Assembly: GCA_965214095.1 (NCBI GenBank)
Contig: OZ243938.1
Location: 2,528,001-2,592,000, forward strand
Reading direction: 5' to 3'
DNA from: Candidatus Poribacteria bacterium
Lineage (GTDB): Bacteria; Poribacteria; WGA-4E; WGA-3G
DNA: 64,000 nucleotides
Below, in pieces: positions 31,492 through 53,528 of this stretch. How positions within the stretch are numbered: the first letter of the stretch is position 1; every line of letters begins with the position of its first letter. The position numbers and the translations under genes are program-made. The notes beneath the pieces were generated by a model. The model saw only the letters and a program-made list of their open reading frames with translations. It ran no database searches and had not been told where the DNA came from.

Positions 31492-33363
31492 CTAATCCAC
31501 TGACACAGAAGCAAGTTTCCAAAACAGAATCGTACCGTCCAAACTCGCACTCACCAATGTCTTTCCATCCGGACTAAACGTAACACTATAAACACTATTG
31601 GTATGTCCATCAAACTTAGTAATTGGATGGTAGTTCTCAGTATCCCACAGCATTACAGTGCCCTCAATACTTCCACTTGCTAACATTTTTCCATCTGGAC
31701 TGAACGCAATGCCGTTAATCAGAGTCTGATGATCTGTGATTTTCATAAGATATTCACCTGTTTTGGCATTCCATAAATGAATTGAAGCGTCCCCGCTTCC
31801 GACTGCAAGCGTTTCACCATCAGGACTGAAAGCTAATTTCTCAACACCATAATTAATATCTGTTCTCAATGTCCGAATATATTCACGTGTTACCACATCC
31901 CACAGACATACTGTTTTGTCTCGACTCCCACTTGCGATTAACTTTCCATCTGGACTAAACAGAACACTAAGTACTTCACCTGTATGCCTTTTAAGTGTTT
32001 GAATATGTGTGCCTTTCCCTACCGTCCACAGATCAACGTTCCCGTTCTCACTTCCACTTGCAAGCATAAAACCATCTGGACTATACGCAACACTATAGAT
32101 ACTTCCAGCATCATTGCTTAAAGTCATCAAAGGTGTGGCAGTAAGGATATCTTGCAGACGTACTGTGCCATCCAAACTCCCACTCGCAAGAGTTTTTCCA
32201 TCCGGACTAAAAACGACACTATCCATCGGACGCGTATGTTCTGTGAGAATATTAAGGGGTGTCAATGTATTCATATCCCATAAACGAATGGTTTTGTAAC
32301 CACTAATCGCAGCCAACATAGTTCCATCTTGACTGAATACAGGGTTTGTCATACCACTAAAATGCCCAGGTATTGTCAGAAAGGGTTTCCTTGTTTGCAG
32401 ATTCCACATACGCACTGTGCCATCCAAACTCCCACTCACTAGCGTCTTCCCATCAGAACTGAAAACCAGTTTTGAAACGACATCCGTATTTTCCATGAAT
32501 TCCCTACCTGGGACACCTGTCTGGATATCCCAATATCGAATGTGTTTTCCCCTACGTGAACTCACCAAAGACTTACCATCTGGACTAAAAGCAACACTAT
32601 TGGCATAAGAAGGATGATCTGTGAGTGTTAGTAATGATGATCCGGTATTCACATCCCACAAACGGACGGTCTTATCCCAACTCGTACTTACCAATTTCAT
32701 CCCATCTGGACTGAACGATACACTATATAGTCCTTTTGTATGCCCCGAAAACGTTTGCAATTGTTTCCCCGTCTCATAATTCCAGAGACGTGCAGTTTTG
32801 TCCCAACTTGCACTTGCTAATGTCTTACCCTTCGGATTGAATGATACACTGTAGACTGTATCCGTGTGTCCTCTCAACTCTTGAAGAAGTGTTCCTGTCT
32901 CAGCATGCCAGAGACGCACAGTTGTATCCCGACCTGCACTTGCCAATATCTTACCGTCCGGACTGAACGCTACGCATTCAACACTAGCTGTAAGATTTGC
33001 AATTTTCCTAAGGTGTGTTCCTGCCTCAACATCCCAGAGACGCACAGTATTATCCCAACTTGCACTTGCTAACATCTTATCATCGGGACTGAACGCTACG
33101 TCTCTGACAACATGCGTATGCTCTTTGAGCAGGTCAAGTGCTTCACCTGTTTGCGTGTCATAAACCCAAATACCAATTCCACTTGCTACTGCAACATGTT
33201 TCCCACTGTGGGAATAAGCGATTTCATATAACACACCTTTGCCGAGACGTGCTTTTGCCCCTTCTGGCAAACCCCATTGTGTAAAATCTTGTGCAAGCGG
33301 CGTTGAGGCTAGAACCAGTATTGAAATGCAAATAGTTAAAATCGAGAATAGTGTTTTTTTCAT
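31492..33363 (-). CDS. Secreted WD40-repeat protein (about 14 blades)
   Basis: Signal peptide; QWGLPEGAKARLGKG leader; repeated H...FSPDG...LASAS.D.TVRLW. Confidence 0.92.
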   Translation of the reverse strand: MKKTLFSILTICISILVLASTPLAQDFTQWGLPEGAKARLGKGVLYEIAYSHSGKHVAVASGIGIWVYDTQTGEALDLLKEHTHVVRDVAFSPDDKMLASASWDNTVRLWDVEAGTHLRKIANLTASVECVAFSPDGKILASAGRDTTVRLWHAETGTLLQELRGHTDTVYSVSFNPKGKTLASASWDKTARLWNYETGKQLQTFSGHTKGLYSVSFSPDGMKLVSTSWDKTVRLWDVNTGSSLLTLTDHPSYANSVAFSPDGKSLVSSRRGKHIRYWDIQTGVPGREFMENTDVVSKLVFSSDGKTLVSGSLDGTVRMWNLQTRKPFLTIPGHFSGMTNPVFSQDGTMLAAISGYKTIRLWDMNTLTPLNILTEHTRPMDSVVFSPDGKTLASGSLDGTVRLQDILTATPLMTLSNDAGSIYSVAYSPDGFMLASGSENGNVDLWTVGKGTHIQTLKRHTGEVLSVLFSPDGKLIASGSRDKTVCLWDVVTREYIRTLRTDINYGVEKLAFSPDGETLAVGSGDASIHLWNAKTGEYLMKITDHQTLINGIAFSPDGKMLASGSIEGTVMLWDTENYHPITKFDGHTNSVYSVTFSPDGKTLVSASLDGTILFWKLASVSVD

Positions 33364-33419
33364 GTGTGGGTTTGTCCTTTTTGTATCGGTGTTATTTATG
33401 ATGTATTATAAAATTATCA

Positions 33420-33537
33420 TTATACCATTTCTAATTGAAAACGCCGCATTTTTGTAGCACAAACTGCCAGTTTGTGCCGTCCTTCAAGACATTCTTAACA
33501 AATGTTAATGGGATAAGCATTTATAGAAATGGTATTA
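33420..33537. mobile_element. 118-bp MITE-like element (TACCATTTCTA...TAGAAATGGTA) with internal REP GTAGCACAAACTGCCAGTTTGTGC
   Basis: 11-bp terminal inverted repeat; 114/118 identical to 48042-48159. Confidence 0.8.
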
Positions 33538-33567
33538 GTTTGATAATAGACATCTGAACTTCATTTT

Positions 33568-33860
33568 AATGTGAGTTTGATAAATAATTCAAATATTTTG
33601 TCTAAAGAGAACTCTTTTGGTATAATAAAGTCATTATACTTACTTTAAAAAGGAGTTCTCTAATGCGTATTTTAACACTTTTTTGCAAAATTGACGACTT
33701 TTTTAGCTTATAAGGCATTTCTGGAATCGCGCTCACTTCAGAACGATAAACCGATTGAAACACGCGGGCGTCCGCGCAATCTACACGACAGTGAGGTAAT
33801 GACCATAATCATTGCCTTCCATCAAAGTGGGTGTCGTACGTTCAAACATTTTTATGATTT
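33568..33860 (+). mobile_element. IS982-family remnant: left end plus frameshifted, truncated transposase 5' part
   Basis: ATG 33663 MRILTLFCKIDDF, then a frameshift in a T run to ...RGRPRNLHDSEVMTIIIAFHQSGCRTFKHFY; putative IR AATGTGAGTTTGATAA at 33568. Confidence 0.8.
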
Positions 33861-33869
33861 TTTTAGGTG

Positions 33870-36800
33870 TCATTCAGTGGAAGGTTTAGGGAGGGTACCA
33901 TTCAACGCATTCGCAACAAACACAAGATCCGCAAGATCAACAACACCGTCCCTATTAACATCCGCACGCATATCTTTTCCGGTCTGTCCAAGACGCGCAG
34001 AGACAAATTCAAGATCCCCATCATTCAGCTGCCAATCTTCATTAACATCTCCATGAATAGGAGTCGGTTTGACAACCCAAGCATACACAGGAACAGAAAG
34101 TTTCCGTTCAATACTATTATCAGTCATCGTGATAGTTGAATCTGCGAACTCAAGAACTTCAAAAGTGACGGTAGCAACGAGACCATCCGCAGCAATGGAA
34201 TTCCCCGCAATTGAAATTGTACTTTCACTTGCAACAATCTTCGGTTGATCTGTTTCTCGGTTAGGAATATATCGGAGAGCAGATAAATCATACTGCAACG
34301 TGAATTGATAATCCGTAACACCTTGTCTACTAACCAAATTAATGTTAAAGGTGATGCTTTCACCTACGCGGGGTGATTCAACGATATGTGGTGTGATGTT
34401 CAGTCGCGTGTCAAACGTTGGTTTCATCTCCCACAATAGCACTGTCCCATCTTTGCTCCCACTCACAAGCGTATTGCTATCTGCTGTATATGATAAGAAG
34501 GTAATCGAATCAGTATGTCCTGTTAAAGTTCTTTCCCGTATATTCTTCTCTATGTCCCAAAATACAATATTCATTTCCTCAGTAGTACCAATTGGAGATG
34601 ATTTCTTCTCTCTCACACCACAAGTAAGCGTCTTACCATCGGGAGAGAAAGTAATTGGTTCAATTTTCTTAATATAGGGACCATTCTCAGACAAGACTCT
34701 AAGAGTGGACTTATGTCTCCGCAAATTCACATCCCACAATTGAATGTGTCGGTAACCATCTGTAGAAGCAATTGTCTGTCCATCTGGAGAAAACACCACT
34801 GAACTCACAGGAGTAGCACTATTAAACCCACTGTAAACTAAATTCCTAAATTCAGCATATTGTTTTCCTGTTTTTGTGTCCCATACTCGGATTGTATTGT
34901 CATTACTATCATTCCGATTTCCACTCCCACTCACAAGCATAGTTCCATCAGGAGAAAACCCTATGGAGTTGATGCGTTCTGCATGACCTTGAAGTGTTTT
35001 TGTGTGTTCGCCACTGCGAATATCCCAAAGCCGAATCATGTTGCGTTCATTACTTGCAAGTGTTTGTCCGTTTGGTGATAACACGATCGATCTGATATTT
35101 TCAATATAGAGAGTTTCCTTATGTCCCGGAAGGGTTGCTATCTCTTGTTGGGTATGAGTGTCAAACAGTCTAATATCCTTTTCCCATGGATAGGCAAGTG
35201 TCCTATTGTCTTTGATTAGGACAAGCGGTGTAAGACGGAAATCACCAGCTATCGTTGCCTTCAAGAGCCGTGAATGCATATCCCATAATCGGAGACCTTG
35301 ACTACCATGTACAGTAATAAGTGTTGTTCCATCAGCTGACAATACTGCTGAATTGATTGCGTTACCATATCCCTTAAGCATCAAACTGATTTTACCAGCT
35401 TCTGTATTCCACATTTGCACAGTACCATCTGGAGTTACGCTTATCAGAGAAGTCTTATCAACCAAAAATGGTGGAAGAAAAAACTCCCCATATTCTACAT
35501 CTTCAAATAGTGTTAGATTTTCACCTGTCTCAATGTTCCATTCTCGTCCTGTTCCATCCCTATTCACACTGATTAAGCTGTTCCCATCAGCAGAAAACCG
35601 CACAGAAGAAACAGGATCTGTCAATTCTTGATTTTCTTCAAAAAAGGTAGTTTGTAGTTCTCCCGTATCTGCGTTCCACAGTTTGATGATTTCAACTTTC
35701 CTATTGTCCATGTCTAATGCTATGGTTGCAAGCGTCTTTCCATCTGGTGAAAAGGAGAGACGAGGTTCAGTCGGAGAAAATTGTATCTCAGTTCTTTGAA
35801 CATCATTAATATCTACAAGGGTATGTATATGCTGCCCAGATTGTATATTCCAGAGTTGCGTTTCTTGGCGCGTATTTGCAATGGCAAGTGTCCTACTATC
35901 TGGAGAGAACTCCAATGCATAGTAGAAATCACCTGATGGATAGGCTTTTTGTCTCCGTAACCATAAGTGTGTATCCCACAATTGAAAATGTCTTTTATTT
36001 GAAGTGGCAAGAATCCTACCATCTGGTGAAAAGGCAATATTAAATATCACACTCCCAGCGTTGAGTTCCCTCAGTAGCTGACGGGTATACGGATTCCATA
36101 TCCGAAGTTTGCCATCATAACTCCCACTCACAAGTAGATCCCCTTGCGGTGAAAAGACAACAGATGAAACAGGTTCAGTGTGTCCTGTCAGCAATGCAAG
36201 TTCATCTCCTGTTTTACCATCATACAACCAAACACCCGCAGATCCGGCAACTGCAAGTAACGTCTTATCAGGTGACATCTTTATATCATTGACAGTACCT
36301 TTCCCTAAGCGTGTAATCGCGCCAACTGGTAAACTAAATTGTGTGTGATCTACAGGATCACCATCTGTTGCTTCTAATGCAACAACAGAACACCCTACTG
36401 AAATAGGACGCGCAAGACTACCATCACCTTTTTCAAGACGAACTCTCGTCAAGCTTATAACTGATGGTCTCACTGCAATCACTTCAAACGTCACACTTGC
36501 GAACGTACCAGTTTCTTTACTAACTGCATCAGAACTGTTTGATATAAGTTTCAGACGATTCGGATACACATCTTTGGTCTCAAAATCGGCATCATTGATA
36601 AGATAATCCCCTTTTTCACTTGAAACATATCGTAGGGCAGTCGTATCATAATCCACCGTGACCTGATACCCGCTTATGTCCTTTGCTCCAGCAATATCTA
36701 TGTTAAGTTTAACTTTCTCTCCGATAGCAGGTGATTCTACAATATTAGGTGCAATGCTAACCACCGAGTTTGTATCTGTTGTAGGTCTCATCTTCCACAA

Positions 36801-38717
36801 CAGAACAGTCCCATCTTGACCAACACTTGCCAAATTATGTTCGTTTGGTAAAAGCGCGTCCTGCATCGTCCCAGTTCCCTCACGAGAAAGAAATGCTAAC
36901 GAAGAAATATTACCAAAGTGTCCAATAAAGGTCTCTTGAAGTTGACCTGTAGGTAGGTCCCACACTCTAATAATGCTGCTTAAACCTGCCCCCGAAAGTT
37001 TTGTGCCATCCTCCGAAAAGGATAATACAGAAACCGCACCATCCTTAAAAACATGTGTACGTTTTTGAGTTCTCATATCCCACACCCAAACACCATATGA
37101 ATCACCACCCGCAAGTAATGAACCATCCGGTGAAAATTCCATTGTTGATGTCGGTCCAGATTCCTCTGCAAGTACTGCTTCGTGATTACCGGTAATAGCA
37201 TCCCACAAATGAATACTATTCATTCGTCCCCCACCTGTTACAAGATACCTGCCATCTGGAGAAAATGCTAAACTATTAACCCATCCTAGATGTTTTCTAA
37301 GAGTCTTTTTTAGTTTGCCAGTAAACGTATCCCACAGTTCCACGCAGCTATTCGTTTTACCCAAAGCAAGCGTTTTCCCATCTGGAGACAGAGTCCTTGA
37401 ATTTTTAATACCTAAATGGAAATAATTGAGTGCATCAGTTAGGGTTGATTGATGTTTCCCTGTCTGCACATTCCATGCTTTCATTTGTTTCAACTGACTG
37501 GTGTAAGTTCCACTGACAAGTGTTGTGCCATCCCCTGACATAAGAAGTATTGAAGTGTATTTCGGATCAAGGATAAGTCGTTTCTCTACCTGACGCGAGT
37601 TGATATTCCAAAACTGTATATCCCCATTATGTTGGGAAGCAAGTGTTTTTCCATCAACTATTGCCATCGGCAAATTATGTTGTGTATGCGTGATAGTCCG
37701 TTTCTGTTGCCCCGTTACTGTATCCCAAAATATGATTGTCCCATCATGACTTCCACTCGCAAACGTTGTGCCATCAGGTGAAAATGCCAATGTGAAAATA
37801 GCACCTTTATGTCCCTTCAAAGTTGTTTGCTGTTTTCCCGTTTCTGGATCCCAAAAATAGACTGTTGGATCAAACCCCGCACTGGCAAGTGTGTTCCCAT
37901 CAGGTGAGAACGCGAGGACGTTTAATTGTCCGTGAAACCCATCAATAATTTTTCTTCGTTTTTCTGTCTTTAGGTCCCATAACTCAATTGTATCTGCCGA
38001 ATCACCACTCGCAAGCACTGTTCCATCAGGAGAAAACACCAGCTCTTTAACCTCCTGACTATGTCCTATAAGTGTTGATTTCTGATGTCCACTCTGCACA
38101 TCCCATAAGTGAATGTTTTTGTCCCAAGCCGAACTCGCAAACGTCTTGCCATCCGGTGAAAATGCGAAAGTTGAAAAACTTCCTTTTTCCAAATCAAGTG
38201 TCCTTATTTGTTTATGTGTATTCGCTTCCCACAACGTAATGATGCGATAACTTAACCCACAAATAATGCTTCCATCCGGTGAAAACCGCACTGTATTCGC
38301 ATTCTCTCCTATAAGTGTAGTCTTATATTTCCGTGTTCCTACATCCCACAAACGGACTTTCTGATCCCAACCAGCAATCGCAATTGTTTTCCCATCGGGT
38401 GAGAATGCTACTGAAGGCCTCTGATTCAATTGCTTCTGTTTCAGATTCAGATAATTGGAAAGTTCAGTATTCGTAAGACCAGAAAGCAACCCGATTTCAT
38501 CACCCGTATGCGCGTCATACAACCACGCACCGATAGGCGTTCCCACTGCAAGCAGCATTCCATCAGGTGAATACGTCATGTCAGTAATCCGTCCTTTACC
38601 GATACGCGCAACTGCATTCTCTGGAAGTTCCCATTGGGATATATCCACCGCACCACCAGACGATACAATCATAATAACGAATAACAGCATAATAAGAAAA
38701 AGTTTCAAATGTTTCAT
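33870..38717 (-). CDS. Giant secreted protein: WD40 propellers-cohesin-WD40 propellers-cohesin-dockerin
   Basis: Signal peptide; two WD40 blocks each opened by a LP..A..R.GKG leader; cohesin-like GYQVTVDYDTTALRYV and DYQFTLQYDLSALRY; dockerin GDVNED...ADVNRDGVVDLADL. Confidence 0.88.
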   Translation of the reverse strand: MKHLKLFLIMLLFVIMIVSSGGAVDISQWELPENAVARIGKGRITDMTYSPDGMLLAVGTPIGAWLYDAHTGDEIGLLSGLTNTELSNYLNLKQKQLNQRPSVAFSPDGKTIAIAGWDQKVRLWDVGTRKYKTTLIGENANTVRFSPDGSIICGLSYRIITLWEANTHKQIRTLDLEKGSFSTFAFSPDGKTFASSAWDKNIHLWDVQSGHQKSTLIGHSQEVKELVFSPDGTVLASGDSADTIELWDLKTEKRRKIIDGFHGQLNVLAFSPDGNTLASAGFDPTVYFWDPETGKQQTTLKGHKGAIFTLAFSPDGTTFASGSHDGTIIFWDTVTGQQKRTITHTQHNLPMAIVDGKTLASQHNGDIQFWNINSRQVEKRLILDPKYTSILLMSGDGTTLVSGTYTSQLKQMKAWNVQTGKHQSTLTDALNYFHLGIKNSRTLSPDGKTLALGKTNSCVELWDTFTGKLKKTLRKHLGWVNSLAFSPDGRYLVTGGGRMNSIHLWDAITGNHEAVLAEESGPTSTMEFSPDGSLLAGGDSYGVWVWDMRTQKRTHVFKDGAVSVLSFSEDGTKLSGAGLSSIIRVWDLPTGQLQETFIGHFGNISSLAFLSREGTGTMQDALLPNEHNLASVGQDGTVLLWKMRPTTDTNSVVSIAPNIVESPAIGEKVKLNIDIAGAKDISGYQVTVDYDTTALRYVSSEKGDYLINDADFETKDVYPNRLKLISNSSDAVSKETGTFASVTFEVIAVRPSVISLTRVRLEKGDGSLARPISVGCSVVALEATDGDPVDHTQFSLPVGAITRLGKGTVNDIKMSPDKTLLAVAGSAGVWLYDGKTGDELALLTGHTEPVSSVVFSPQGDLLVSGSYDGKLRIWNPYTRQLLRELNAGSVIFNIAFSPDGRILATSNKRHFQLWDTHLWLRRQKAYPSGDFYYALEFSPDSRTLAIANTRQETQLWNIQSGQHIHTLVDINDVQRTEIQFSPTEPRLSFSPDGKTLATIALDMDNRKVEIIKLWNADTGELQTTFFEENQELTDPVSSVRFSADGNSLISVNRDGTGREWNIETGENLTLFEDVEYGEFFLPPFLVDKTSLISVTPDGTVQMWNTEAGKISLMLKGYGNAINSAVLSADGTTLITVHGSQGLRLWDMHSRLLKATIAGDFRLTPLVLIKDNRTLAYPWEKDIRLFDTHTQQEIATLPGHKETLYIENIRSIVLSPNGQTLASNERNMIRLWDIRSGEHTKTLQGHAERINSIGFSPDGTMLVSGSGNRNDSNDNTIRVWDTKTGKQYAEFRNLVYSGFNSATPVSSVVFSPDGQTIASTDGYRHIQLWDVNLRRHKSTLRVLSENGPYIKKIEPITFSPDGKTLTCGVREKKSSPIGTTEEMNIVFWDIEKNIRERTLTGHTDSITFLSYTADSNTLVSGSKDGTVLLWEMKPTFDTRLNITPHIVESPRVGESITFNINLVSRQGVTDYQFTLQYDLSALRYIPNRETDQPKIVASESTISIAGNSIAADGLVATVTFEVLEFADSTITMTDNSIERKLSVPVYAWVVKPTPIHGDVNEDWQLNDGDLEFVSARLGQTGKDMRADVNRDGVVDLADLVFVANALNGTLPKPSTE

Positions 38718-41293
38718 TTTGCTTCCACCTTTCCACTTTTGACAGTCGGACGAATACGATTACCTTTCCTATCAGATATACTTGCATTACTTAGACTTAC
38801 CATTGAGTTCTTAGTATCAACTACTTCAAACGTCACAGTGGCAAGCGTACCATTCCCACTCACTTCACCTGTAAGTGCGGTTGATGTTAGAGTTATCTGA
38901 TCATTCACTATGTTAGGTGTCAAAAAGATCATATCATCAGGGAGATAGGCACCATTCGTTGCAGAGATATATCGAAGTGCTGATGCATCAAATCTCATAG
39001 TGAACTGATACGCAGCAACTTTTTCACCACCCGAAATCTGAACCTTGAACACCTGTTGTTTTCCAATTTCTAGCGACACAACAGTTGAAGGCGTAATTGA
39101 AAAAATAACGCTCTCTTCAACTTGAGGAACCGGCTTCCATAACACAATTGTTTCATCAGCACATGCACTTGCAAGCCTTCCATCACCGATAAACGCTAAT
39201 GAAGAAATATATTGTCTGTGTCCTTTCAACGTTGCTTGATGTTGCCGAAAACCGACATCCCACACCTCAACATTGTTCCCACCACCACTCGCAAGAAACC
39301 TACTATCCTGTGAAAACGTTAAAGAGAGCACCGGACTGGTATGCACATCATCATGCAGAACATGATTTTCACCTGTAGTGGTATTCCAGATTTGCACTGA
39401 CTTGTCATTATATCCACCACCACCGCTTGCAAGGAGCAATCCGTTTGGAGAATAGGCTAAAGCACTCACGATGTCGGTATGTCCTCTATACGTGTCTTTT
39501 AGTTTGCCTGTCCGAATGTCCCACAAATGAATTGCAGGACCTCCTTTCAATCCATTGCTTGCGAGGGTAGTTCCATCGGGAGATATCGCTATGGCTATTA
39601 TACCTTTCGGCCGTCCTTCCAACGTCCATTCAAGTTCCTCCGTATCCACTCTCCACAATTGGATTCCCAATTTATCTGTATGGTCAAGACTATTCACACT
39701 TACAAGTTTTAATCCATCAACAGAAAAGGCAACTGAATGCACCTGAGGAACTGTCCTCTCTATTTGAGCTTTCATAGCAATTGTGCCGACGTGTCTGTTA
39801 GTTCTTGTGTCCCATAACCGAACAGTACCATCATAACTTGCACTCGCGAGCATCGTTCCATCAGAAGAAAACGATACAGCGTTAACACCATCTGTATGTC
39901 CTTTAAGTGTACTCATATATTTTCCTGATTTTGCATCAAACAACAATATGTCATGTCCGCTGATACCACATGCCAGAATTCCACCTTTTCCATAAGCAAC
40001 GAACGGGCCTATATCATCCTGTCTACGCAAACCACTATAAACTATTGAACCTGACTCTGTATTTGCTGGAATATTCCATAGCCGGATCTGTCGTCCATAC
40101 TCATTACCTCGCTCGCTACGTATAGTTCCCCGCATAGCAAGTGTTCGACCATCGGGTGAAAATCGGAATGAGTCAACCCGCGCTTGAATAGGAAGTTTCA
40201 GTGTCCTTGTACCTGTCTGTGTGTTCCAGATTTCAATATTATTCTTTTTTTGAAATTCCCGAATGGCAAGTCTATTCCCATCGGCTGACATCGCTTTCGG
40301 TCTCTGAATGGGTTGATGTCCGGGAGGAAGTATAGGAATACTTGAAAGGTGTTGTCCAGAACGTGTGTTAAAAAAACGTAATTCATTCTTATCCCGATGG
40401 AAAGCCAACAGCGTCTCGCCATTTTGCGAAAATTCAAATCCCCCAATATGTCTTTCAACTCCTGTATCCAGTGTAGCAACTTCCGCACCTGTGTTGGCAT
40501 TACATAAAATAGTTTTGTCTTTCATTCTCTGAACAAAACGAGTGCCATCTGGGGAGAAGATTAAATTACCTGCAGGATAATTTGTATCAAATTTCTTGTC
40601 CTGTCCTGTTTTAGTATTCCAGATACGATAAATCCCATCAGTACTCACACAAATCAGTGAAATGTCGTCAGACGCATATACTAATCTATAGACCCAACCG
40701 TCATCTGTTGTAAGCATTGTCTTAACAAGTTCACCTGTCGCAACATCCCAAAGACGCACTCTACCATCTGGTCCTTTTTCAGATTGGGATTCTTCAACAT
40801 TCGGTCCTACAATTACATCACCAAGTCGAGTCCTTATTCGTTCCGACAGAACTTGACGGCTTGCACCTGTTGCAAGATGCTTACTGTCGGGAGAAAACGC
40901 TAAAACATTGGTGTTTCCGAGATGTCCGTCAAGTGTCGCACGATGTTCAAGAGTCCGTGCCTCCCACAAGCGAACTGTCCTATCAAGACTACCGGTGGCA
41001 ATCGTTTTACCATCTGGTGAATACCTTATAGCAGTAATAGTGTCGGTGTGTCCAGTAAGCAGCGCAAGTGCAGCACCTGTTCGTCCATCATAAATCCAAA
41101 TACCGGAATAAGGACTGACAACTGCGAGCTGACTGCTATCGGGTGAAAACACATAATTTGTAATATACCCGTTGCTGATACGCATCTCAGCACCTTCAGG
41201 CAACACCCGCTGCAGACCTGATGGCATCCCATTGGCAAATACCTCAGGAACAAAAATAACTACACTCAGCAATAGCAGCACAAACCTATTCAT
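38714..41293 (-). CDS. Secreted WD40-repeat protein with C-terminal cohesin domain
   Basis: Signal peptide; WD40 repeats; AYQFTMRFDASALRYI...GNGTLATVTFEV; ATGA overlap with the downstream gene. Confidence 0.88.
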   Translation of the reverse strand: MNRFVLLLLSVVIFVPEVFANGMPSGLQRVLPEGAEMRISNGYITNYVFSPDSSQLAVVSPYSGIWIYDGRTGAALALLTGHTDTITAIRYSPDGKTIATGSLDRTVRLWEARTLEHRATLDGHLGNTNVLAFSPDSKHLATGASRQVLSERIRTRLGDVIVGPNVEESQSEKGPDGRVRLWDVATGELVKTMLTTDDGWVYRLVYASDDISLICVSTDGIYRIWNTKTGQDKKFDTNYPAGNLIFSPDGTRFVQRMKDKTILCNANTGAEVATLDTGVERHIGGFEFSQNGETLLAFHRDKNELRFFNTRSGQHLSSIPILPPGHQPIQRPKAMSADGNRLAIREFQKKNNIEIWNTQTGTRTLKLPIQARVDSFRFSPDGRTLAMRGTIRSERGNEYGRQIRLWNIPANTESGSIVYSGLRRQDDIGPFVAYGKGGILACGISGHDILLFDAKSGKYMSTLKGHTDGVNAVSFSSDGTMLASASYDGTVRLWDTRTNRHVGTIAMKAQIERTVPQVHSVAFSVDGLKLVSVNSLDHTDKLGIQLWRVDTEELEWTLEGRPKGIIAIAISPDGTTLASNGLKGGPAIHLWDIRTGKLKDTYRGHTDIVSALAYSPNGLLLASGGGGYNDKSVQIWNTTTGENHVLHDDVHTSPVLSLTFSQDSRFLASGGGNNVEVWDVGFRQHQATLKGHRQYISSLAFIGDGRLASACADETIVLWKPVPQVEESVIFSITPSTVVSLEIGKQQVFKVQISGGEKVAAYQFTMRFDASALRYISATNGAYLPDDMIFLTPNIVNDQITLTSTALTGEVSGNGTLATVTFEVVDTKNSMVSLSNASISDRKGNRIRPTVKSGKVEAK

Positions 41294-41426
41294 AACAACC
41301 CTCCTCCATCCTTATACTACCGTGTCATTATAACCTGCTATTCGTCAACCGTGCATAACGAAACAAATCACATAAGCGTTTACATATTGTTGGAGAGGTT
41401 TACAACCCCGATTTACAAAGAACCAC

Positions 41427-41456
41427 GTTCAATGTGAATGTCTAATGCACATTCAC
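41427..41456. repeat. 30-bp palindromic dispersed repeat
   Basis: GTTCAATGTGAATGTCTAATGCACATTCAC; 28/30 identical copy at 61331-61360. Confidence 0.65.
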
Positions 41457-41590
41457 TAAGCGCAATTCGCGCCATCCGTGAAATCCGCGTCAACCCGCAA
41501 TCCCAAAAAATATTTCCATCCAAAAGTAAACCCACCCATTTCTTCTCCGTTACAATACTATTACAACCCAAACAACAACGGAGAACTCTC

Positions 41591-44500
41591 TTGAACCCAA
41601 TATCCACAGATGGATATAGATGTCTATTTATCCTCGCACTCACATTGCTTCTTCTCGCAAAGCCTGCCTTGACTGCGAATAAAGACGAATCCACACCGAC
41701 ACCTCAACAAGAAAATACTGCAAATACACCAATAGAAAACCCGTTTACCAAAAAACCGAAAGAAGACAGTTGGTTAGAAAGTGATACGCAAACAGAACCC
41801 ACTGAGGACGAATCTGAAGCACGAGACGAAGATACAGAACAGGCACTACGTCGTCAGTTACTAATGCCATATTTAGAGTCCATACGCCGCTGGAGAAATC
41901 CGCCTGACCTCGGCGACCTATCTGAATTATATGATTGGACCCCGCGCAAAAAATCAGATACAAAAGGCATTGATCTGCCTATGGATTCAAACCTACAGAT
42001 TACTGGTTTCCAGTCTGTAACAGTTGAAGTCAACAGAACACACTATTTCGGTGAAGGAGACTTGAACAGATACGGAGGATACGGATATAGTAGTTACGGT
42101 GGTTACGATTCCGGTCTGGACCTCGGCTTAAGCTCATCCTACGGATATGAAGATTTTGGCTACGGCGGCTATGGAGGTGGATACGATAGTTTTGGGTCAG
42201 GTTCCTCAAGCTACGGTAGCGGATATAGCAGTTATGGAAGCAGAGGAGTTCCTCGCGCATCAGGCATCAACATACGACAACAGCAAAAGATAGGTCTACA
42301 CGGACGCGTCGGTGAACGCACGCATATCGCTGTAGATTACAACGCAGGTGATACATACGGAGGAGGATATGGGGGTTATGGTGGCGGATATAGCGGATAT
42401 GGACTCGGTGGTGCAAAAGAACAGAAAATCAAAATCTGGTATGAAGGAAAACCCGATAGCATCATCAAGACAATATCATTTGGAGACATTACACTCAGCC
42501 TTCCCAACACACGTTTTCTCAATATCAACCGAAATCTGTTCGGACTTGAAGGTGTTTTCGAATATAAGAACACACGGCTAACCGCATTCGGTTCACGAAG
42601 TAAAGGTGTCCGTGAAGTGCGGACGTTCCGAGGACAATCACGCAGAGCAAGTTTCGGATACGGTCCGCGCGGTATTCAGGTCGCCGATTCAAATTATGTT
42701 AAGAATAGATACTATCTAATCCATAAGGGTGAAGACGGTCTGCTACACGACGCATATCTCCCAATAAAATCAGGAAGTGTGGAAATCTATATTGATGATA
42801 GTGTCGTCGGAAACAACCAAGGTGGACAACGAACCAGTCAAGGATATTTCAACCCACAGTTCCCCGGTCAAGACTACAACATTGACTATGAAACAGGTGA
42901 AATCGAATTCCTTTCCCAAATCTCGTCAAGTTATACTATCGTTGTCGCTTATGAATATTTAGGCGATGGCGGTGGAAGTGTTGGAAATCCAGGAAACGTC
43001 TTCGCTGATGAAAATGCTGACGGTTCTATTGATGAAGAAGGCGAACAGGTAGGATATGTTGTCCTAAAAGAGAAAGGGTTTCGCGGCACCGCTGCATCAC
43101 ACGTCTACTACATCGGAAACAGAAACATAAACCCACGCGATTTTACTTTGACGATTATCAGAGACGGACAAAGTGAAACCTTTGATACTGATACTGGACC
43201 TGTACCATATATTGCGATATTTGGATTAGACCAGAACGGCGATGGCATCGTCGACCCAGAGTTCATCGACTATGACAGAGGATTACTGCGTTTCCCATCA
43301 TCACGTCCTTTTGAGATACAAGATCCCCAACATCCATATTACAAATACAGAGACTCCCTTAACAATGAAGCAATATATCTGGAATCCTTACGCAGTACTG
43401 ATCAAGTCTACACCATCATCGCAGATTATTCCTATCAATCCGAAACATATAATGTCGGTCTGTTCGTCATTCCCGAAAGCGAAACCGTACGACTAAACGG
43501 CAAACTCCTTACCCGCGACACAGATTATTTGATGGTCTATGAAGTTGGTTCCATACGGTTTTTCAGTGAACTTGATGAGTTTGATGAGATCGTCGTAGAA
43601 TTTGAAAAAACACCATTCGGCGGTGGCACACAGCAAGCTGTCGCAGGTCTATGGCTTGAATACACACACAAACCTAAACCAAAATCATCAGAACAGCAAA
43701 ACCTTGAAGACAGGTTTAATAGATTAGGGGGAGGTCAAAACATACCTACAGGTTTAGATAACAACCTAAATACTGACCCGTTTTCCGGTGGTTTGTCTAA
43801 CACAGGATCACGTACTGGACGCGGATTCGGTAATACTGGCTTTGGATCAAGCGGATTCGGAACAAGTGGATTCGGTAGCGGCTTTGGCGGTGGAGGATAC
43901 AGCAGTTTCGGTGGGTTCGGAGGAAGATCCAGAAGCGGCTCCAGCTATTATGGCGGATACGGATCGGGTATGAATTATTTCAATCCTGTATTCCAAAAAG
44001 GCTTCAATATCTCAACTGGATACATCCTAACAACAGGACAACAACCCGCACAAATACCAGATGTCAACAGTGTGCCAAACAGATTACAGGCGTTTAACAT
44101 AAACACAAGTTTCGGCAGAGAATTCAACATCGCATGGTTAGTCAATCCACTTCCATTCGTCAACTCACGTTACTTCCCACTCTCCTTTGACTTCAGCGGG
44201 GAAGCCGCTTATTCACATAACAACCCAAATAGCGTCGGTGTTGCTATGATTGATAGTATGGAAGGCGTAAAACAGACTTCTACAATACCTACAAGAAAAT
44301 ATAATTGGAAACCAAGTAGTCTGCCTTATGTCCCAGAATCTCAACAGGCAGACCTATCCACAACCGACTATAGTGTTGTCCCAACACAAGAAAATAGAGC
44401 TCTCTTTAACGTCGTACTCAGAGATAGAGAGGAAGCAGATGCTGTTGGCAACTATATGCGAAACAGAGATGTACCAGCATCTTCTATACAACCACTTTCT

Positions 44501-47500
44501 CTCTCAACAGATGAACGGGTGGTCATGGAGATCGGATATGATTTTACAGACGTCGTCGCAGAATGGGGCGGATTCTCAAACGGTATATCAAAATCTGGAA
44601 CAGATTTCTCCGAACGCGGTTTCATCGAAATGTGGATGCGAGTACAAGGAGATGACGACGTTACGCTTTATCTCAATATCGGGGCTGTCAGTGAAGACTC
44701 AGACGCAGACCAAAGACTTGACAGTGAAGACCTACCACAATCTTTAGAAGACACCAACGGCGACAATATTGTTGACGCGCTTGACCTTGACCTTGAAAAC
44801 TTGCCTACAGATCAACAGAATCGCGCTAACGGGCAAATAGATAAAGGAGAGGATGTTGGATGGTTATTTGATGGTGAATTTCAACCCGAATCTTTTGGCG
44901 GAAACAACGATATTTTAGATAGCGAAGACCTAAACGGAGACGGTGTACTGGATACCGTTGACGCATATTTTCAAGTCGCTATTCCTCTCAATGAAATACC
45001 AAACGAATGGATAAAAGGTAAAAACACAAACGGATGGACATTTCTTAGCATACCGCTCACAGAATTAGCCCCTGAAGGCACACGGCTTCCAAGCCTTGTG
45101 TTTGTTCAACACTTCCGTCTGTGGTTGATGAAAAACCATCCAGGAAACGTTAAAGGCACATTCCAGTGGGCTTCTATTGAAATCGTCGGAAATCGATGGC
45201 AACAAGGGGTCGTCACAAAATCATTAAACGATACCGACTCCGGACTTTCAGATAGTCAAGTTGTGGAAAATACATTAGAAAAATTCATCGTCGGCACAAG
45301 AGACAACTTCAGTTTTGACGACTATCAGAGTGCATACATTGAAATTGAGGATGATGAACTCTTCAGGAAACTACACCCTTTCACAGCATCATCGCTCGGC
45401 TTCCAAACACAGCAGCAACGCGAACAAACACTCAGCTTAGAGTATTATCTCTATCCCGGTTCACACGGTATCACATCAAAACAACTCAAAGGGTACACGC
45501 AAAGTGAAGGACAAGATTTTAGCCAACATGATACACTACGATTTTGGTTATACGGAGACAATAGTGATACCACATTTGTCATGCAACTCGCACCCAGCGT
45601 GCGAAATACATACAGAAGTTCCTTTTACAGCTCCGACCCATTCCTCAACCAACCACAACAGGAAGAGGATGTTAACATCTTTGAAAACCTAACTGATTAT
45701 TATGAATACACAATACCACTTGACTTTGATGGTTGGAAACTGGTAGAAATTGACCTGCGGGACAATACACGCAACGAATATCCCGATAGTGTAGAGAACC
45801 AGGATGATGATACTGATACTACAAATCAGAATATCCAATCCGATCCTGTAGAAAACGCTCCTGATGGACATCCCGATGGTTTCACCGTCAGAAAAACAGG
45901 AACGGGTGTTAGCAGAACGCAGCTCACAATAAAAAACATCGGTGGTATTCTACTTGGTATCCGAAACGATACTGACCAAGAACTCAGTGGCGAAGTATGG
46001 GTGAACGAAATACATCTCGGTGACCCACTTATACGTTCTGGTTGGGCACGACGCGGTGATATGTCTGTTTCACTCGGTCGCATCCTCCGACTCCGCGGTG
46101 GATACGCAAGTCAGGACAAAGATTTTGAGAGCGGCGCAGGGGAAATCGGAAGGCAACGCTTATCTTCACGCGGATATAGCACCACAAACAACGACTACAA
46201 TATAAACGCTGATGTCACTATCTTCCAATGGCTACCTATCCGATATTCTATAAGAGAACAAGAGTCTGAAACGGAAGCACAACGTGGCAGCTACACCTCT
46301 TTTCAAAGTGGAAAAAGCCAAACACATAACAGAGATGTCTCTGTTAATTTCAACCGAAATCCCTTCCCTAACCTCGGTTTCGCATACAACTTCCAAGACT
46401 TCTGGAATGAACGCCAAGGCACACAGATTAGCCACTTATATACAGGGACCTTTCGCTACAGTATCGGCACAAAAGTCGGATTCAATATGCAATATCGCCA
46501 CGAAGACATTATCGCACAACCCGAAACCGCTACCGACACAACCGCATCGTCAACCTCCTTCTACAGCTACGGCTACGGCAGAAATCGTGATGAAAAAACA
46601 GATAGCGGCTCCATTTCTCTCAACATCAGTCCAATCAATGCATTTAGTCTCAATCCAAGCTATGATATTCGTAGAACGCTTGAAAGACGTGATCAAAGCC
46701 GATACAGACCCACCTCTTTCACATCCGGATTTGACACCACTGCTAATGACGATGACACTGAGGACACACCTACAGGCTTTTCCATCGCAGAAAGAGAACA
46801 TCGGGTTTCTCTTACTCCCCGACTCAACCGTGATCTTCTCGGTTTACGACCAACCGTCACAAGCCGTGCAAGTTTCCGAGAAAACTGGTTCACAACACAA
46901 AAAGACGCATCACTCAATGGAAACATCAACCTCGGTTTAAACCTGCGTATACAAAAATGGTTCGGATGGATATTCAAAAGTAAAGAACCTGAGATGGAAG
47001 GAACACAAAATGCACCCGAAAAACCTACAAATACACAAGCACCAAGCCAACAACTCATTGAACAAATGCGTAAAAGCGGTATTGATGAGGCACAAATACA
47101 AGAATATAAAGAAAAACAAAGCGATTGGATAAATCGAGACAAAGCAGAAATAGACCAAAGTCAACCTACAGATCTCGCAGCGCAACAAAAACAGGAAGGA
47201 CTCTTCCAACGCATCATCAACACATTTTCTATCAATACCAGCGCGAATTTCACCGCAACAGAATCGTTCCGTCAACTTGAATCGGATCAGAACCTATTAG
47301 ATGTTTGGCAACTTGAAAACGATGCAGAAGAACGCACAAATTCACGCAAAAGCAATCGTTACTCAGTTCGCACTTCCATGGAACCGTGGAAATGGTTGAC
47401 CTTCGGCACAAATCTCAGCACTGCCGATAGTTTTCGCAAAAGCTACGCTACAACCTATACATCACATGCTGAAACCTATGAGGGTGATATAAAACTAAAA

Positions 47501-48028
47501 ACACAAAAAGCAACAAGCTTCCAACTCCGCTACAGTTTCACGACACGAAATAATACAAACCTTGATGTCACCCTTAGCGATAGCACAGCACACACACCAT
47601 CGCTCAGTTGGATACATAAATGGAGTGATGAAACTAGAACTTCATTAGGTATCCGCACAACACTCCGCGACCATCTCCGAAGTGGCATTGAGAGCAACGC
47701 ACTCATCATTACCCCTAACTTTAGCATTGACTACAAATACCATACGGAAGGCGGAATCCGCTTACCCATTTTCGGCAGGATACCCTTAAGGCACGACCTT
47801 GACCTAACCAACACATTATCTTTAGCAATCCGAAGGGAGCACTACGGTGCGAACAAAGAAGAACGTTCTGAAAGGTATGAGACAACACTGCGCGTCGGTT
47901 ACAAACTCAGCAACCACCTTACAGCAAACCTACATCTTGGCGTGAGTTATAACAACGATAGAGTTGAAGAAGGAAGGGATTTCATATCAGTCGCAAGTGC
48001 ACTAACAGTCAGAGGCGAATTCCAATAA
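41591..48028 (+). CDS. Very large outer-membrane beta-barrel protein, SprA/Sov (T9SS translocon)-like, with Gly/Tyr/Phe/Ser low-complexity inserts
   Basis: TTG 41591 after GGAG, then a signal peptide; KIWYEGKPDSIIKTISFGDITLSLP..F....NLFGL, DYNIDYETG, SETVRLNG..L.RD.DY, IDSMEG, LDSEDLNGDGVLD and GEVWVNEI; amphipathic beta-strands at the C-terminus ending VRGEFQ. Confidence 0.75.
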   Translation: MNPISTDGYRCLFILALTLLLLAKPALTANKDESTPTPQQENTANTPIENPFTKKPKEDSWLESDTQTEPTEDESEARDEDTEQALRRQLLMPYLESIRRWRNPPDLGDLSELYDWTPRKKSDTKGIDLPMDSNLQITGFQSVTVEVNRTHYFGEGDLNRYGGYGYSSYGGYDSGLDLGLSSSYGYEDFGYGGYGGGYDSFGSGSSSYGSGYSSYGSRGVPRASGINIRQQQKIGLHGRVGERTHIAVDYNAGDTYGGGYGGYGGGYSGYGLGGAKEQKIKIWYEGKPDSIIKTISFGDITLSLPNTRFLNINRNLFGLEGVFEYKNTRLTAFGSRSKGVREVRTFRGQSRRASFGYGPRGIQVADSNYVKNRYYLIHKGEDGLLHDAYLPIKSGSVEIYIDDSVVGNNQGGQRTSQGYFNPQFPGQDYNIDYETGEIEFLSQISSSYTIVVAYEYLGDGGGSVGNPGNVFADENADGSIDEEGEQVGYVVLKEKGFRGTAASHVYYIGNRNINPRDFTLTIIRDGQSETFDTDTGPVPYIAIFGLDQNGDGIVDPEFIDYDRGLLRFPSSRPFEIQDPQHPYYKYRDSLNNEAIYLESLRSTDQVYTIIADYSYQSETYNVGLFVIPESETVRLNGKLLTRDTDYLMVYEVGSIRFFSELDEFDEIVVEFEKTPFGGGTQQAVAGLWLEYTHKPKPKSSEQQNLEDRFNRLGGGQNIPTGLDNNLNTDPFSGGLSNTGSRTGRGFGNTGFGSSGFGTSGFGSGFGGGGYSSFGGFGGRSRSGSSYYGGYGSGMNYFNPVFQKGFNISTGYILTTGQQPAQIPDVNSVPNRLQAFNINTSFGREFNIAWLVNPLPFVNSRYFPLSFDFSGEAAYSHNNPNSVGVAMIDSMEGVKQTSTIPTRKYNWKPSSLPYVPESQQADLSTTDYSVVPTQENRALFNVVLRDREEADAVGNYMRNRDVPASSIQPLSLSTDERVVMEIGYDFTDVVAEWGGFSNGISKSGTDFSERGFIEMWMRVQGDDDVTLYLNIGAVSEDSDADQRLDSEDLPQSLEDTNGDNIVDALDLDLENLPTDQQNRANGQIDKGEDVGWLFDGEFQPESFGGNNDILDSEDLNGDGVLDTVDAYFQVAIPLNEIPNEWIKGKNTNGWTFLSIPLTELAPEGTRLPSLVFVQHFRLWLMKNHPGNVKGTFQWASIEIVGNRWQQGVVTKSLNDTDSGLSDSQVVENTLEKFIVGTRDNFSFDDYQSAYIEIEDDELFRKLHPFTASSLGFQTQQQREQTLSLEYYLYPGSHGITSKQLKGYTQSEGQDFSQHDTLRFWLYGDNSDTTFVMQLAPSVRNTYRSSFYSSDPFLNQPQQEEDVNIFENLTDYYEYTIPLDFDGWKLVEIDLRDNTRNEYPDSVENQDDDTDTTNQNIQSDPVENAPDGHPDGFTVRKTGTGVSRTQLTIKNIGGILLGIRNDTDQELSGEVWVNEIHLGDPLIRSGWARRGDMSVSLGRILRLRGGYASQDKDFESGAGEIGRQRLSSRGYSTTNNDYNINADVTIFQWLPIRYSIREQESETEAQRGSYTSFQSGKSQTHNRDVSVNFNRNPFPNLGFAYNFQDFWNERQGTQISHLYTGTFRYSIGTKVGFNMQYRHEDIIAQPETATDTTASSTSFYSYGYGRNRDEKTDSGSISLNISPINAFSLNPSYDIRRTLERRDQSRYRPTSFTSGFDTTANDDDTEDTPTGFSIAEREHRVSLTPRLNRDLLGLRPTVTSRASFRENWFTTQKDASLNGNINLGLNLRIQKWFGWIFKSKEPEMEGTQNAPEKPTNTQAPSQQLIEQMRKSGIDEAQIQEYKEKQSDWINRDKAEIDQSQPTDLAAQQKQEGLFQRIINTFSINTSANFTATESFRQLESDQNLLDVWQLENDAEERTNSRKSNRYSVRTSMEPWKWLTFGTNLSTADSFRKSYATTYTSHAETYEGDIKLKTQKATSFQLRYSFTTRNNTNLDVTLSDSTAHTPSLSWIHKWSDETRTSLGIRTTLRDHLRSGIESNALIITPNFSIDYKYHTEGGIRLPIFGRIPLRHDLDLTNTLSLAIRREHYGANKEERSERYETTLRVGYKLSNHLTANLHLGVSYNNDRVEEGRDFISVASALTVRGEFQ

Positions 48029-48041
48029 TCACTATTCATTC

Positions 48042-48159
48042 TTATACCATTTCTAATAGAAAACGCCGCATTTTTGTAGCATAAACTGCCAGTTTGTGCA
48101 GTCCTTCAAGACATTCTTAACAAATGTTAATGGGATAAACATTTATAGAAATGGTATTA
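48042..48159. mobile_element. 118-bp MITE-like element, second copy
   Basis: Direct repeat of 33420-33537 with 4 mismatches. Confidence 0.8.
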
Positions 48160-51202: not shown

Positions 51203-52810
51203 TTATTCAAGAAAACCACGCAGCCGGTGGCTTCGGATGGGATGGCGGAGTTTACGCAATGCCTTCGCCTCAATCTGACGGATACGTTCACGAGTCACAT
51301 CAAATACAATACCCACCTCTTCAAGTGTCTTCGGATATCCCGTTGTAATACAAAGTTCATCAATCCGCTTACGGGTAGATCCTGACAATAACGGAGGATC
51401 AGTGTCGTCTTCAATACCGAAACGCAGCACAATCACCTCACGTTCACGTTCCGATAAATCCGCAAGGGCTTCTTGGATACGTTCTTTCAGAATGCTCAAC
51501 TCGGCTTCAGTCGCAGGAGAAAGCACAGAAACATCCTCAATAAAATCACCCAATTGACTGTCATCATCGTCATCTCCAATAGGTGTTTCTAGCGAGACAG
51601 TCTCTGGCACAATTCGCAATACCTCTCTGACCTTTTCCGCAGGGATATCCATATCTGCCGCAATCTCTTCGGGAGTCGGTCTGCGTCCCAAATCTTGTAA
51701 AAGTGACCGTTCCACACGCTTCATTTTATTGATCCGCTCGTGCATGTGCACAGGAATACGGATAGTTCGACCTTGATCCGCTATCGCACGCGTGATGCTC
51801 TGCTTAATCCACCACGTCGCATAAGTACTGAACTTAAAACCTCGATGATAATCAAACTTGTCAACCGCACGCATCAACCCGATGTTACCCTCCTGAATCA
51901 GATCAAGAAATTCCATACCAGGGGCTTGATGTCTATATTTTTTCGCAATACTCACCACTAACCTGAGATTCGCCTCAACAATTGCCATTTTGGCATCTTG
52001 CGCATTCTCTTCACCGATGGTAATCTGCTTCGTCACGGACTGAAGGGCATCGCGCGAAATGCCGATTGTATTGAGATACTGCGCAATTTCTCGTTGATAC
52101 CGGATAATTGTGATGTATGCCTCTTTACCGGCTTTCGTCTTGAATTTGTGCTCCTTAGTATTTAGTCTGCCATTCAACCATTCTGAAGGGATTCTGTGTC
52201 GTTTCTGCAACCGAGAAATTTCCTGCTCACGATTACTAACGTTCTGCTCTACTTCAGTCACTTTACCTGAAATATTGCTTATCTCTTCGCGGTCAATTTT
52301 CAACTGATCAAGAAGTTTCATAAAAGTCGCATGACTACGGATAGAACACAATTCTGCAGGTGAACCGTTTTTGGAGGCATCCTTCGCAGCATCAAGGTAC
52401 TCTAATTCCATTTTCTCAATCGTACGCATCACACGTTCAACTTTATCGCGTAGTTTTCGTTCCTTATCCCGTGTTGAACTACTGGAAACTTCCATATCAA
52501 TAATATCTGATGCACGTTTCTTAGTAATGATAATTTTATACAGAAGTTTACGCACCTCCGCAACCGCAAAACGCGTGGTAAAAGTCGCTTCTTGTGCTTG
52601 ACGTAGACCTGTTTCAATCTGTTGAGATAATTCTATCTCTCTATTTTTATCTATTAACTGTATCCTACCCATTTCACGCAGATACTGTTTGATGAGATCC
52701 TCGCGTTCACTGATTTCACTCGGTTCAAATTCTATATCCTCATCAAACTCTGATTGCTCTGATACATCAGATTCATTAAAATCAAGTAGGTCTGTATTTC
52801 CATATTCCAC
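51203..52810 (-). CDS. rpoD: Primary sigma factor RpoD
   Basis: Region 1.2 YLREMG; [25 protein letters not shown] and FSTYATWWI; region 4 [28 protein letters not shown]; downstream of dnaG. Confidence 0.95.
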
Positions 52811-52963: not shown

Positions 52964-53506
52964 TTAAGTTCTATGATCTGCAATTGCACGAGAGACATCT
53001 TGTCGGATCCACCATTCTGCATAAGTCTTAAACTGGAAACCACGTTGATAATCATAATTATCAAGAGCACTCAGCAATCCAATGTTACCCGCCTGAATCA
53101 GATCAATAAATTCCATTTCAGGTGCTTGGTGTCTATATTTTTTCGCAATGTTCACGACTAACCTGAGATTCTCCTCAAGAATTGCCATTTTTACTTTTGC
53201 CTCTGCTATATCATCCGCTTCGTCAGTGTTAATCTGATTGGAAATACTTTTCAGTGCCTCACGGGTGAGACCAATCTTCTTGAGATATACTCCAATCTCA
53301 CTATGATAACGGCTTATCTCTTCGTATGCACTTTTTTCCACATCTGATTTGAAATGATGGTTGTCTACATTGAACTGCTCTGTAAACCATTCCGCAGGAA
53401 TATTATGCTGTTTTTGAATCTCGTCAATCATTTGTTCACACTCACTTATATGACGTTCAACTTCGCTTATCTGTTTAACTATAGGACGTATATTTTCTGA
53501 AGTCAC
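52964..53506 (-). CDS. Truncated RpoD paralog (NCR end plus region 2 only, about 180 aa)
   Basis: AAAGGAG RBS before GTG 53506; [34 protein letters not shown]...FKTYAEWWIRQDVSRAIADHRT*. Confidence 0.8.
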   Translation of the reverse strand: MTSENIRPIVKQISEVERHISECEQMIDEIQKQHNIPAEWFTEQFNVDNHHFKSDVEKSAYEEISRYHSEIGVYLKKIGLTREALKSISNQINTDEADDIAEAKVKMAILEENLRLVVNIAKKYRHQAPEMEFIDLIQAGNIGLLSALDNYDYQRGFQFKTYAEWWIRQDVSRAIADHRT

Positions 53507-53528
53507 AATCAGTTCTCCTTTAGTTTTT

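Follow-up and report, generated by a model that had tools for sequence, protein, structure and literature searches.

A 64,000-nucleotide stretch of DNA from a Candidatus Poribacteria bacterium (assembly GCA_965214095.1, contig OZ243938.1, positions 2,528,001 to 2,592,000; hereafter the window, in whose coordinates positions are given) encodes a divergent homologue of SprA/Sov, the outer-membrane translocon found in type 9 secretion systems (T9SS), three loops of which are long, predicted to be disordered and rich in Gly, Ser, Tyr and Phe. What is new here is this divergent SprA homologue with phylum-specific loops resembling the YG domain of the peroxisomal protein PEX13. We tentatively propose that the loops form soft aromatic curtains at both openings of the pore, which would supplement carrier-based sealing.

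A divergent SprA-type translocon

The open reading frame (ORF; Table 1) comprises 2196 codons counted from the first ATG, and its true start is likely the TTG codon at 41591. Its sole NCBIfam match was TIGR04189 (SprA, E 1.6e-42); since the score of 145 bits falls short of the cut-off of 200, we file the protein, by its sequence, as a divergent SprA homologue outside the curated equivalog. A profile built from 44 homologues matched Flavobacterium johnsoniae SprA (6H3I) with E 1.1e-80, the homology spanning profile positions 119–1617. In the PDB, SprA was reached by profile alone, as a search with the single protein sequence gave no match. A Pfam scan gave nothing beyond a sub-threshold CBM_11. 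All clusters matched in the Atlas were either unnamed or of the SprA_N type.

AlphaFold2 models were made in two separate parts, amino acids (aa) 180–1200 (mean predicted local distance difference test, pLDDT, 68.7) and 1500–2196. In a Foldseek search with the first part, four SprA entries were the sole matches under E 0.001 (E 5e-28 to 3e-18), with ~14% identity to SprA in the structural alignment. Both the profile and the fold search agree with an earlier reading of the DNA letters made without database searches (the sequence-only reading), which had named the host of the tracts as an SprA-type translocon. The fold search with the second part aligned 6H3I 1516–2399 (Z 13.4) at rank 24 behind generic barrels, a result that we regard as uninformative and that would be expected for the model of a partial barrel that collapses. 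The two separately folded parts hold 11 + 25 = 36 predicted strands of a putative closed barrel, and aa 1201–1499, which lie between the models, are presumed to belong to the cap. This strand number, two cap insertions and an insertion in loop 24/25 are shared with F. johnsoniae SprA and Porphyromonas gingivalis Sov (6H3I, 6H3J, 8GL6, 8GL8), and F. johnsoniae SprA is reported to be clipped in the loop of that same number (PMC10994853).

A sprA-type gene is present in 40 of 41 relatives and in 150 of 151 genomes of the phylum, with no shared gene neighbourhood among the 16 loci listed, and it encodes the only SprA-type translocon in the type 9-like export system of Poribacteria. Two contigs from public sequencing runs span 41400–48070 with 0 differences, a match that excludes only an assembly slip, as both possibly come from the source sample. 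Contigs from RNA runs of a ~92% relative also cover the gene; contigs cannot show transcription or its level.

Position, composition and spacing of the loops

The three tracts, T1, T2 and T3, are all in frame in this ORF, T3 holding seven FG, and appear in the model as low-confidence coil (pLDDT <50). The FG- and YG-rich disordered inserts of the sequence-only reading were thereby confirmed in place, composition and predicted disorder. T1 lies in loop L1 (42035–42262, 76 aa, 17 aromatics), T2 in loop L2 and T3 in the insertion between strands b8 and b9. Unlike these Gly/aromatic loops, the counterparts in F. johnsoniae SprA are a loop of ~16 aa (153–168), a loop of ~8 aa and a tight turn; short forms also occur in the distant homologues aligned, and b8–b9 is a tight turn in all tract-less SprA proteins. 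Of the 4081 stop-to-stop ORFs with 150 aa or more in the genome, this one is the richest in YG/FG (densest 50 aa: 9 [YF]G at 86% G/S/Y/F, runner-up ORF 7 at 44%; 30-aa window score: 0.93, next protein 0.67).

Regarding composition, codon use is mixed, with all four Gly codons present within each tract, and aromatics recur every 4.0, 3.75 and 5.0 residues in L1, L2 and T3, respectively. Aromatics seldom stand side by side in L1 (0.22 adjacent in the real sequences, 3.66 after shuffling), which bears 13–27 aromatics in 59 of 59 aligned loci. T1 has 5 acidic residues among 56 and T2 no charged residue, while charged residues amount to 11–22% of the whole loops including their anchors. Across the 59 loci the number of FG in T3 ranges from 0 to 7, deep branches being Tyr-dominated, and total FG per pore is 4–16; GLFG occurs in 0/59 loci and FxFG 0–1 times per protein. 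Judged from these sequences, FG is not the conserved unit of the tracts. [G/S]Y[G/S] motifs number 15 in this protein (6–27 across the 59 loci), and Q+N amount to 1–9%.

Strand parity, which is consistent from both ends, would assign T1 and T2 to the outer face and T3 to the periplasm: the anchors are the N terminus after the probable signal peptide, the two cap insertions, both after odd strands, and strand 36, which ends in the terminal Phe-Gln. The tracts would thus sit on the pore rims, rather than facing away from the pore, as far as this predicted sidedness holds. The presumed low wall of b27–b36 is a candidate for a lateral window or docking site of a carrier (PorV). These strands adjoin L1 across the b36/b1 seam, and on an ideal 70-Å circle L1, L2 and T3 lie 9, 21 and ~63 Å from the presumed window. 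In addition, deep-branch orthologues (proteins P0070–P0082; locus L042) carry a LysM domain (PF01476), which, judging from its motif, apparently lies in an N-terminal extension; so placed, it would tie the deep-branch pore to peptidoglycan.

Distribution and origin of the tracts

Every one of the 59 aligned loci, whose relatedness spans genus to phylum, has a T1 and a T3 rich in G/S/Y/F, and the compositional conservation that the sequence-only reading had proposed to examine was found in all orthologues examined. The best 40-residue window has a G/S/Y/F fraction of 0.75–1.0 in 89/89 Poribacteria-like proteins and 0.35–0.575 in 165/165 distant SprA proteins, the two groups being set by core identity, with 12 high-identity fragments, 5 of them with tracts, excluded from both. 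Three distant SprA proteins pass a looser 25-residue filter, and one of these (P0253) has a short Gly/Tyr run at the L1 position, possibly a small parallel expansion. Among further, mostly Elusimicrobiota SprA loci (L061–L140, the best 80 of 322), the best window was 0.33–0.57 in 80/80. In a tree of 70 sequences over 374 core columns, the 24 tract-bearing sequences fall in one clade with FastTree support 1.0, and this indicates that the tracts arose once.

Selection and slippage

Gap openings per 100 codons were 1.8–2.7 in the tracts and 0.08–0.10 in the core (24 aligned pairs, partly non-independent). The ratio of nonsynonymous to synonymous substitution (dN/dS) was estimated from disjoint, indel-free pairs only, with no aligner used inside the loop and with a nucleotide-identity filter of 0.72 on all regions that may lower all values. 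It was 0.06 for L1 (10 pairs), 0.03 for L2 (16 pairs), 0.15 for the whole T3 loop (11 pairs) and 0.06 for the T3 tail (21 pairs), where an Arg motif is found in 58/59 loci, while the core gave 0.05 and three floppy loops elsewhere in the protein, taken as controls, gave 0.20, 0.23 and 0.27. The commonest replacement in the loops was G<->S. Within T1, a short island has 89% column identity vs 56–60% in its flanks and a dN/dS of 0.02; it is a possible tether or binding motif.

Tandem DNA units were also found in the tracts (Table 1), including a 12-bp unit repeated x6.7 in T1 of the orthologue L026, and a close relative has lost 3, 6 and 9 bases, each time in frame, within T1/T2. These units point to slippage as the source of variation, with selection retaining the composition of the tracts. 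The sequence-only reading had invoked protein-level selection rather than slippage; the low dN/dS supports the first half, and the second goes too far in view of the tandem units and indels. That composition is kept while sequence and length turn over would be the signature of a bulk physical property.

The export system around the pore

The genome has 15 matches to the PorV/PorQ family NF033709, 7 of them over cut-off, as well as a PF19572 match, 77 matches to the type A signal TIGR04183, three C25 proteases and one Skp. As in the SprA/Sov T9SS, the system thus comprises SprA, several PorV/PorQ carriers, ~70–77 type A cargo proteins and PorU-like C25 proteases. Searches run without a positive control (the controls being silent) gave no match for Plug (PF17116) in 101 Poribacteria genomes, for GldN in 61 or for GldL in the one genome searched, and none over cut-off for GldM in 61 genomes, with two weak matches. 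The host lies, moreover, outside the Fibrobacterota-Chlorobiota-Bacteroidota (FCB) group, to which the T9SS is confined in the reviews (PMC8754138, PMC12398890).

For comparison, 50 of the 80 mostly Elusimicrobiota loci were picked for longer contigs. Each of these tract-less genomes has 5–23 PorV-family matches at E<=1e-20, and GldM was over cut-off in 0/30 of them in a search again lacking a positive control. The mostly Elusimicrobiota loci thus combine SprA, PorV-family genes and type A signals with no Plug or GldM match, a set that would amount to a minimal system of type 9-like export, widespread beyond the FCB group.

The type A signals of Poribacteria vary unusually little (an example in this genome is C1:1350499-1352568). 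A short basic insert precedes WDG in 45/69 cargo signals of this genome; among the deep-branch signals listed, an insert stands there in 17/17 and is basic in 16/17, and it is absent in 9/9 listed signals from two tract-less genomes. A basic insert is found elsewhere in 5/9 of these listed tract-less signals, all from one genome (G181). We therefore keep the signal insert as a co-evolved partner of the loops as a lead only, in view of the single origin and of this other basic insert in a tract-less genome.

Next in YG richness in this genome comes a protein of 535 aa (C1:3162374-3163978, locus L172) that is secreted-looking, has a Tyr/Gly/Arg-rich stretch and gave no Pfam match, and a GspK-like protein of the type II secretion system has a short FG patch. 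No link to the loops was found for either of these G/Y-rich candidate partners.

Comparison with known aromatic-glycine systems

The PEX13 YG domain is reported to have G/S-rich linkers of ~4 aa free of charged residues and at least 11 Tyr, with Tyr to Phe tolerated; a density of at least 200 mg/ml is expected in its pore, and peroxisomal translocation needs no nucleotide hydrolysis (PMC9795577). The pore is described as a 12-mer, 52–70 Å wide, whose phase is fed from both faces (PMC13733771), and the SprA pore as 7 nm wide (PMC7463736). The loops resemble this YG domain in having exchangeable Tyr/Phe stickers every ~4 residues, G/S linkers and variable sticker number and position, and in being anchored in the wall of a pore ~7 nm wide that serves folded cargo, with contributions from both faces. 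The presence of at least 11 stickers with ~4-residue G/S linkers is seen in L1 of 59/59 loci. On the other hand, there is no homology; a beta-barrel, a monomer by analogy to SprA, stands against a 12-mer helical ring; the loops carry more charge, and no soluble receptor with aromatic motifs is known for them. With one copy of each loop per pore, assumed from monomeric SprA, a pore would hold 38 aromatics, about a quarter of the 168 (12 x 14) of PEX13 (a yeast Tyr count mixed with the human 12-mer); for a cylinder of 7 x 4.4 nm, these numbers correspond to 373 mM and about 1650 mM, respectively. The protein density would be 92–231 mg/ml if all three loops were confined together, and only such confinement would approach the many-copy density of PEX13.

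By sequence, the PEX13 YG domain is a closer match for the loop grammar than are the FG nucleoporins, to which the sequence-only reading had likened the tracts. T3 of this genome does share seven FG in a disordered G/S context with the latter, but Phe is not conserved, GLFG is absent, FxFG occurs at most once and the spacers are much shorter. The likeness to FUS-type prion-like domains, also proposed there, held only for the [G/S]Y[G/S] motifs: the FUS domain is Q-rich and contiguous, while here Q and N are scarce and three short loops (76, 24 and 110 aa) are anchored at both ends in a membrane protein. T3 further matches in size and position the SprE Finger Region, which sits on a separate protein, spans the SprA periplasmic mouth with about 100 unresolved residues, binds PorD and is dispensable for secretion, as reported for F. 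johnsoniae (PMC10994853).

Proposed role of the loops

Under the curtain reading, which we favour tentatively, Poribacteria would have gained once three disordered loops of aromatic stickers and Gly/Ser spacers at the openings of a 7-nm channel. On the outer face, L1 and L2 would border the lateral window, and the b8–b9 insert would lie at the periplasmic mouth. Weakly cohesive, these chains would crowd whichever opening lacks a carrier or cargo and so reduce leakage, and folded cargo would push them aside or transiently wet them. Their action would resemble that of a dilute PEX13 YG phase, since a single copy in each pore would not make a saturated hydrogel. The estimated radii of gyration of L1 and T3 (24–30 Å vs a pore radius of 35 Å) suit such a role. 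Other points in its favour are the strand parity, the loop positions mapped on F. johnsoniae SprA, a composition that is kept through turnover of sequence and length, the PEX13-like spacing of aromatics and, in a search lacking a positive control, the absence of a Plug match in 101 Poribacteria genomes. Protein identity, the positions of the loops along the chain, their predicted disorder, distribution, selection and composition are established; we infer on which face each loop lies, where the window is, that the loops point to the openings and that they serve as a barrier.

Several points weigh against the curtains. Even spacing of aromatics is significant in only 16/59 loci for L1, 33/45 for L2 and 20/58 for T3, and T2 is reduced to a short loop in 7/59 loci (deep-branch L040–L046). 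The models leave the orientation of the loops unset (pLDDT <50), so that L1 and L2 could be draped outward. Tract-less SprA genomes have PorV-family genes in 50/50 cases and a Plug match in 0/50 (search again without a positive control), and a Plug-less SprA therefore needs no tracts; the absence of a Plug or motor match is not peculiar to tract-bearing pores. In P. gingivalis, Sov is described as mostly PorV-bound (PMC8754138). A review describes secretion and gliding as unimpaired in a Plug mutant (PMC12398890), which would mean that selection for sealing the pore may be modest. Finally, given the single origin, any correlation with the tracts amounts to one event. The same counts bear on the idea of the sequence-only reading that the tracts replace PorV or Plug, which is not upheld, and on its suggested anti-correlation with Plug, which is not seen in searches whose positive control was lacking (0/101 tract-bearing and 0/50 tract-less genomes).

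It is possible, if doubtful, that the loops are instead fuzzy binding arms, giving low-affinity, multivalent capture of carriers, of the cargo signal domain or of a periplasmic factor; the T1 island and the Arg-rich T3 end would then make specific contacts, to which the Gly/Tyr runs add avidity. The conserved island (52/59 loci), the low dN/dS of the T3 tail with its Arg motif, the 7 PorV/PorQ genes over cut-off and the basic insert before WDG in signals of this genome and of the deep branches argue for such arms, as does the F. johnsoniae pocket, reported to be plastic and mainly hydrophobic (PMC10994853). Against them, PorV paralogues are at least as numerous in tract-less genomes, repeat number varies freely, and the listed G181 signals bear a basic insert in a different place. 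Binding arms and curtains are not mutually exclusive.

An unlikely alternative is a true selective phase, in which the YG/FG loops from both faces meet in the lumen as a cohesive meshwork, seal it without Plug and let signal-bearing cargo partition into it; this would be a third sticker-and-spacer phase, evolved independently of eukaryotes. The PEX13 grammar, folded cargo, pore widths of about 70 Å (PMC13733771) and 7 nm (PMC7463736) and a phase likewise fed from both faces in PEX13 (PMC13733771) speak for it, and the contour lengths of L1 and T3 (274 and 396 Å) would let the two meet. The lack of a GldL/M/N match in Poribacteria would also fit a translocation without nucleotide hydrolysis, as described for peroxisomes (PMC9795577), but motor-less tract-less genomes exist. 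The low number and concentration of aromatics and the charged residues tell against it, and 200 mg/ml would be reached only with all loops confined in 4–5 nm. For the one built-in hydrogel gate of the sequence-only reading, the predicted location of the loops on opposite faces and the quarter share of PEX13-pore aromatics are likewise unfavourable.

Surface adhesion or glycan binding, in which the Tyr-rich outer loops touch lipopolysaccharide, matrix polysaccharide or host sponge material, is decidedly improbable. Tyr stacks on sugars, and L1, L2 and the small b19–b20 patch are on the predicted outer face; however, the longest tract is periplasmic with the same grammar, tracts occur in every sampled branch of the phylum, and a single-copy, probably low-abundance translocon would make a poor adhesin. 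Neutral low-complexity expansion by slippage in tolerant loops would account for the tandem units, in-frame deletions and high indel rate, but is very improbable and largely refuted by a dN/dS in L1/L2 (0.03–0.06) close to that of the core and far under the control loops, by G-rich codons that persist in a 41% GC genome and by retention of the tracts from genus to phylum level.

Features of the gene and its surroundings

Table 1. Features of the sprA-type gene in window coordinates; faces of the membrane are as predicted from strand parity
Feature	Coordinates	Strand	Basis or remark
Divergent SprA/Sov-type outer-membrane translocon ORF	41438..48028	+	TIGR04189, profile, Foldseek
Probable signal peptide	41591..41677	+	sequence inspection; follows GGAG ribosome site and TTG start
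Barrel strands b1–b7	41990..42631	+	AlphaFold2 secondary structure
T1, Tyr/Gly/Ser tract, outer loop L1 (b1–b2)	42071..42238 (aa 212–267)	+	composition; AlphaFold2 pLDDT <50
T1 island, motif GLDLGL[STN]SSY	42110..42142	+	52/59 loci
T2, Gly/Tyr tract, outer loop L2 (b3–b4), 24 aa	42356..42412 (aa 307–325)	+	composition, AlphaFold2
Folded extracellular cap insertion, b7–b8	42632..43633	+	profile alignment, AlphaFold2
Periplasmic b8–b9 insertion, 110 aa, holds T3	43670..43999	+	pLDDT <50 for model 578–671
T3, 7 FG, within b8–b9 insertion	43823..43969 (aa 796–844)	+	composition
15-bp tandem duplication in T3, x2.1, slippage trace	43844..43875	+	Tandem Repeats Finder (TRF)
Large folded extracellular insertion b11–b12, second cap part	44222..46039	+	AlphaFold2; residues 1201–1499 outside models
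Fourth, short Tyr/Ser/Gly patch, outer loop b19–b20	46520..46591	+	longer in some orthologues; dN/dS 0.08
Periplasmic insertion b24–b25, not G/Y-rich	46949..47227	+	AlphaFold2
Strands b27–b36, outer hairpins of 2–7 residues	47396..48022	+	AlphaFold2; low wall inferred

Many loose contig ends at about 41427–41472 and 48042–48099, plus a joint 41468–48044, suggest that a short repeated element flanks the sprA-type gene at either end. Divergent from it are three large WD40 propeller genes (31492–41293, minus strand); none of the three proteins has a type A signal by sequence pattern, and two have tails that, from their motifs, we take to be dockerin-like and cohesin-like. Downstream of dnaG lies a short RpoD-like ORF of 197 aa that ends after region 2 (52964–53557, minus strand). 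In the full RpoD (51203–52810, minus strand), the match to region 4 takes up 76 residues although the model has 50 positions, which suggests an insertion in region 4. Elsewhere in the assembly, the 32-kb contig C2 has 64% GC vs 41% in the chromosome and is probably foreign to the assembly.

Significance

As far as we know, only nuclear pores and peroxisomes pass folded proteins through a channel that is gated by disordered chains of aromatics and glycine. We found no account of SprA, the T9SS or such loops in Poribacteria among open-licence papers at abstract level. A translocon of the same width with the grammar of PEX13 would offer a minimal, single-chain test of convergent gating and of the fewest stickers needed, in loops that appear to be under selection as strong as that on the folded core across the whole phylum. 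The more modest reading matters as well, since it describes type 9-like export outside the FCB group with no recognisable Plug or motor, in a system that handles about 70 large surface proteins, within a phylum that is uncultured.

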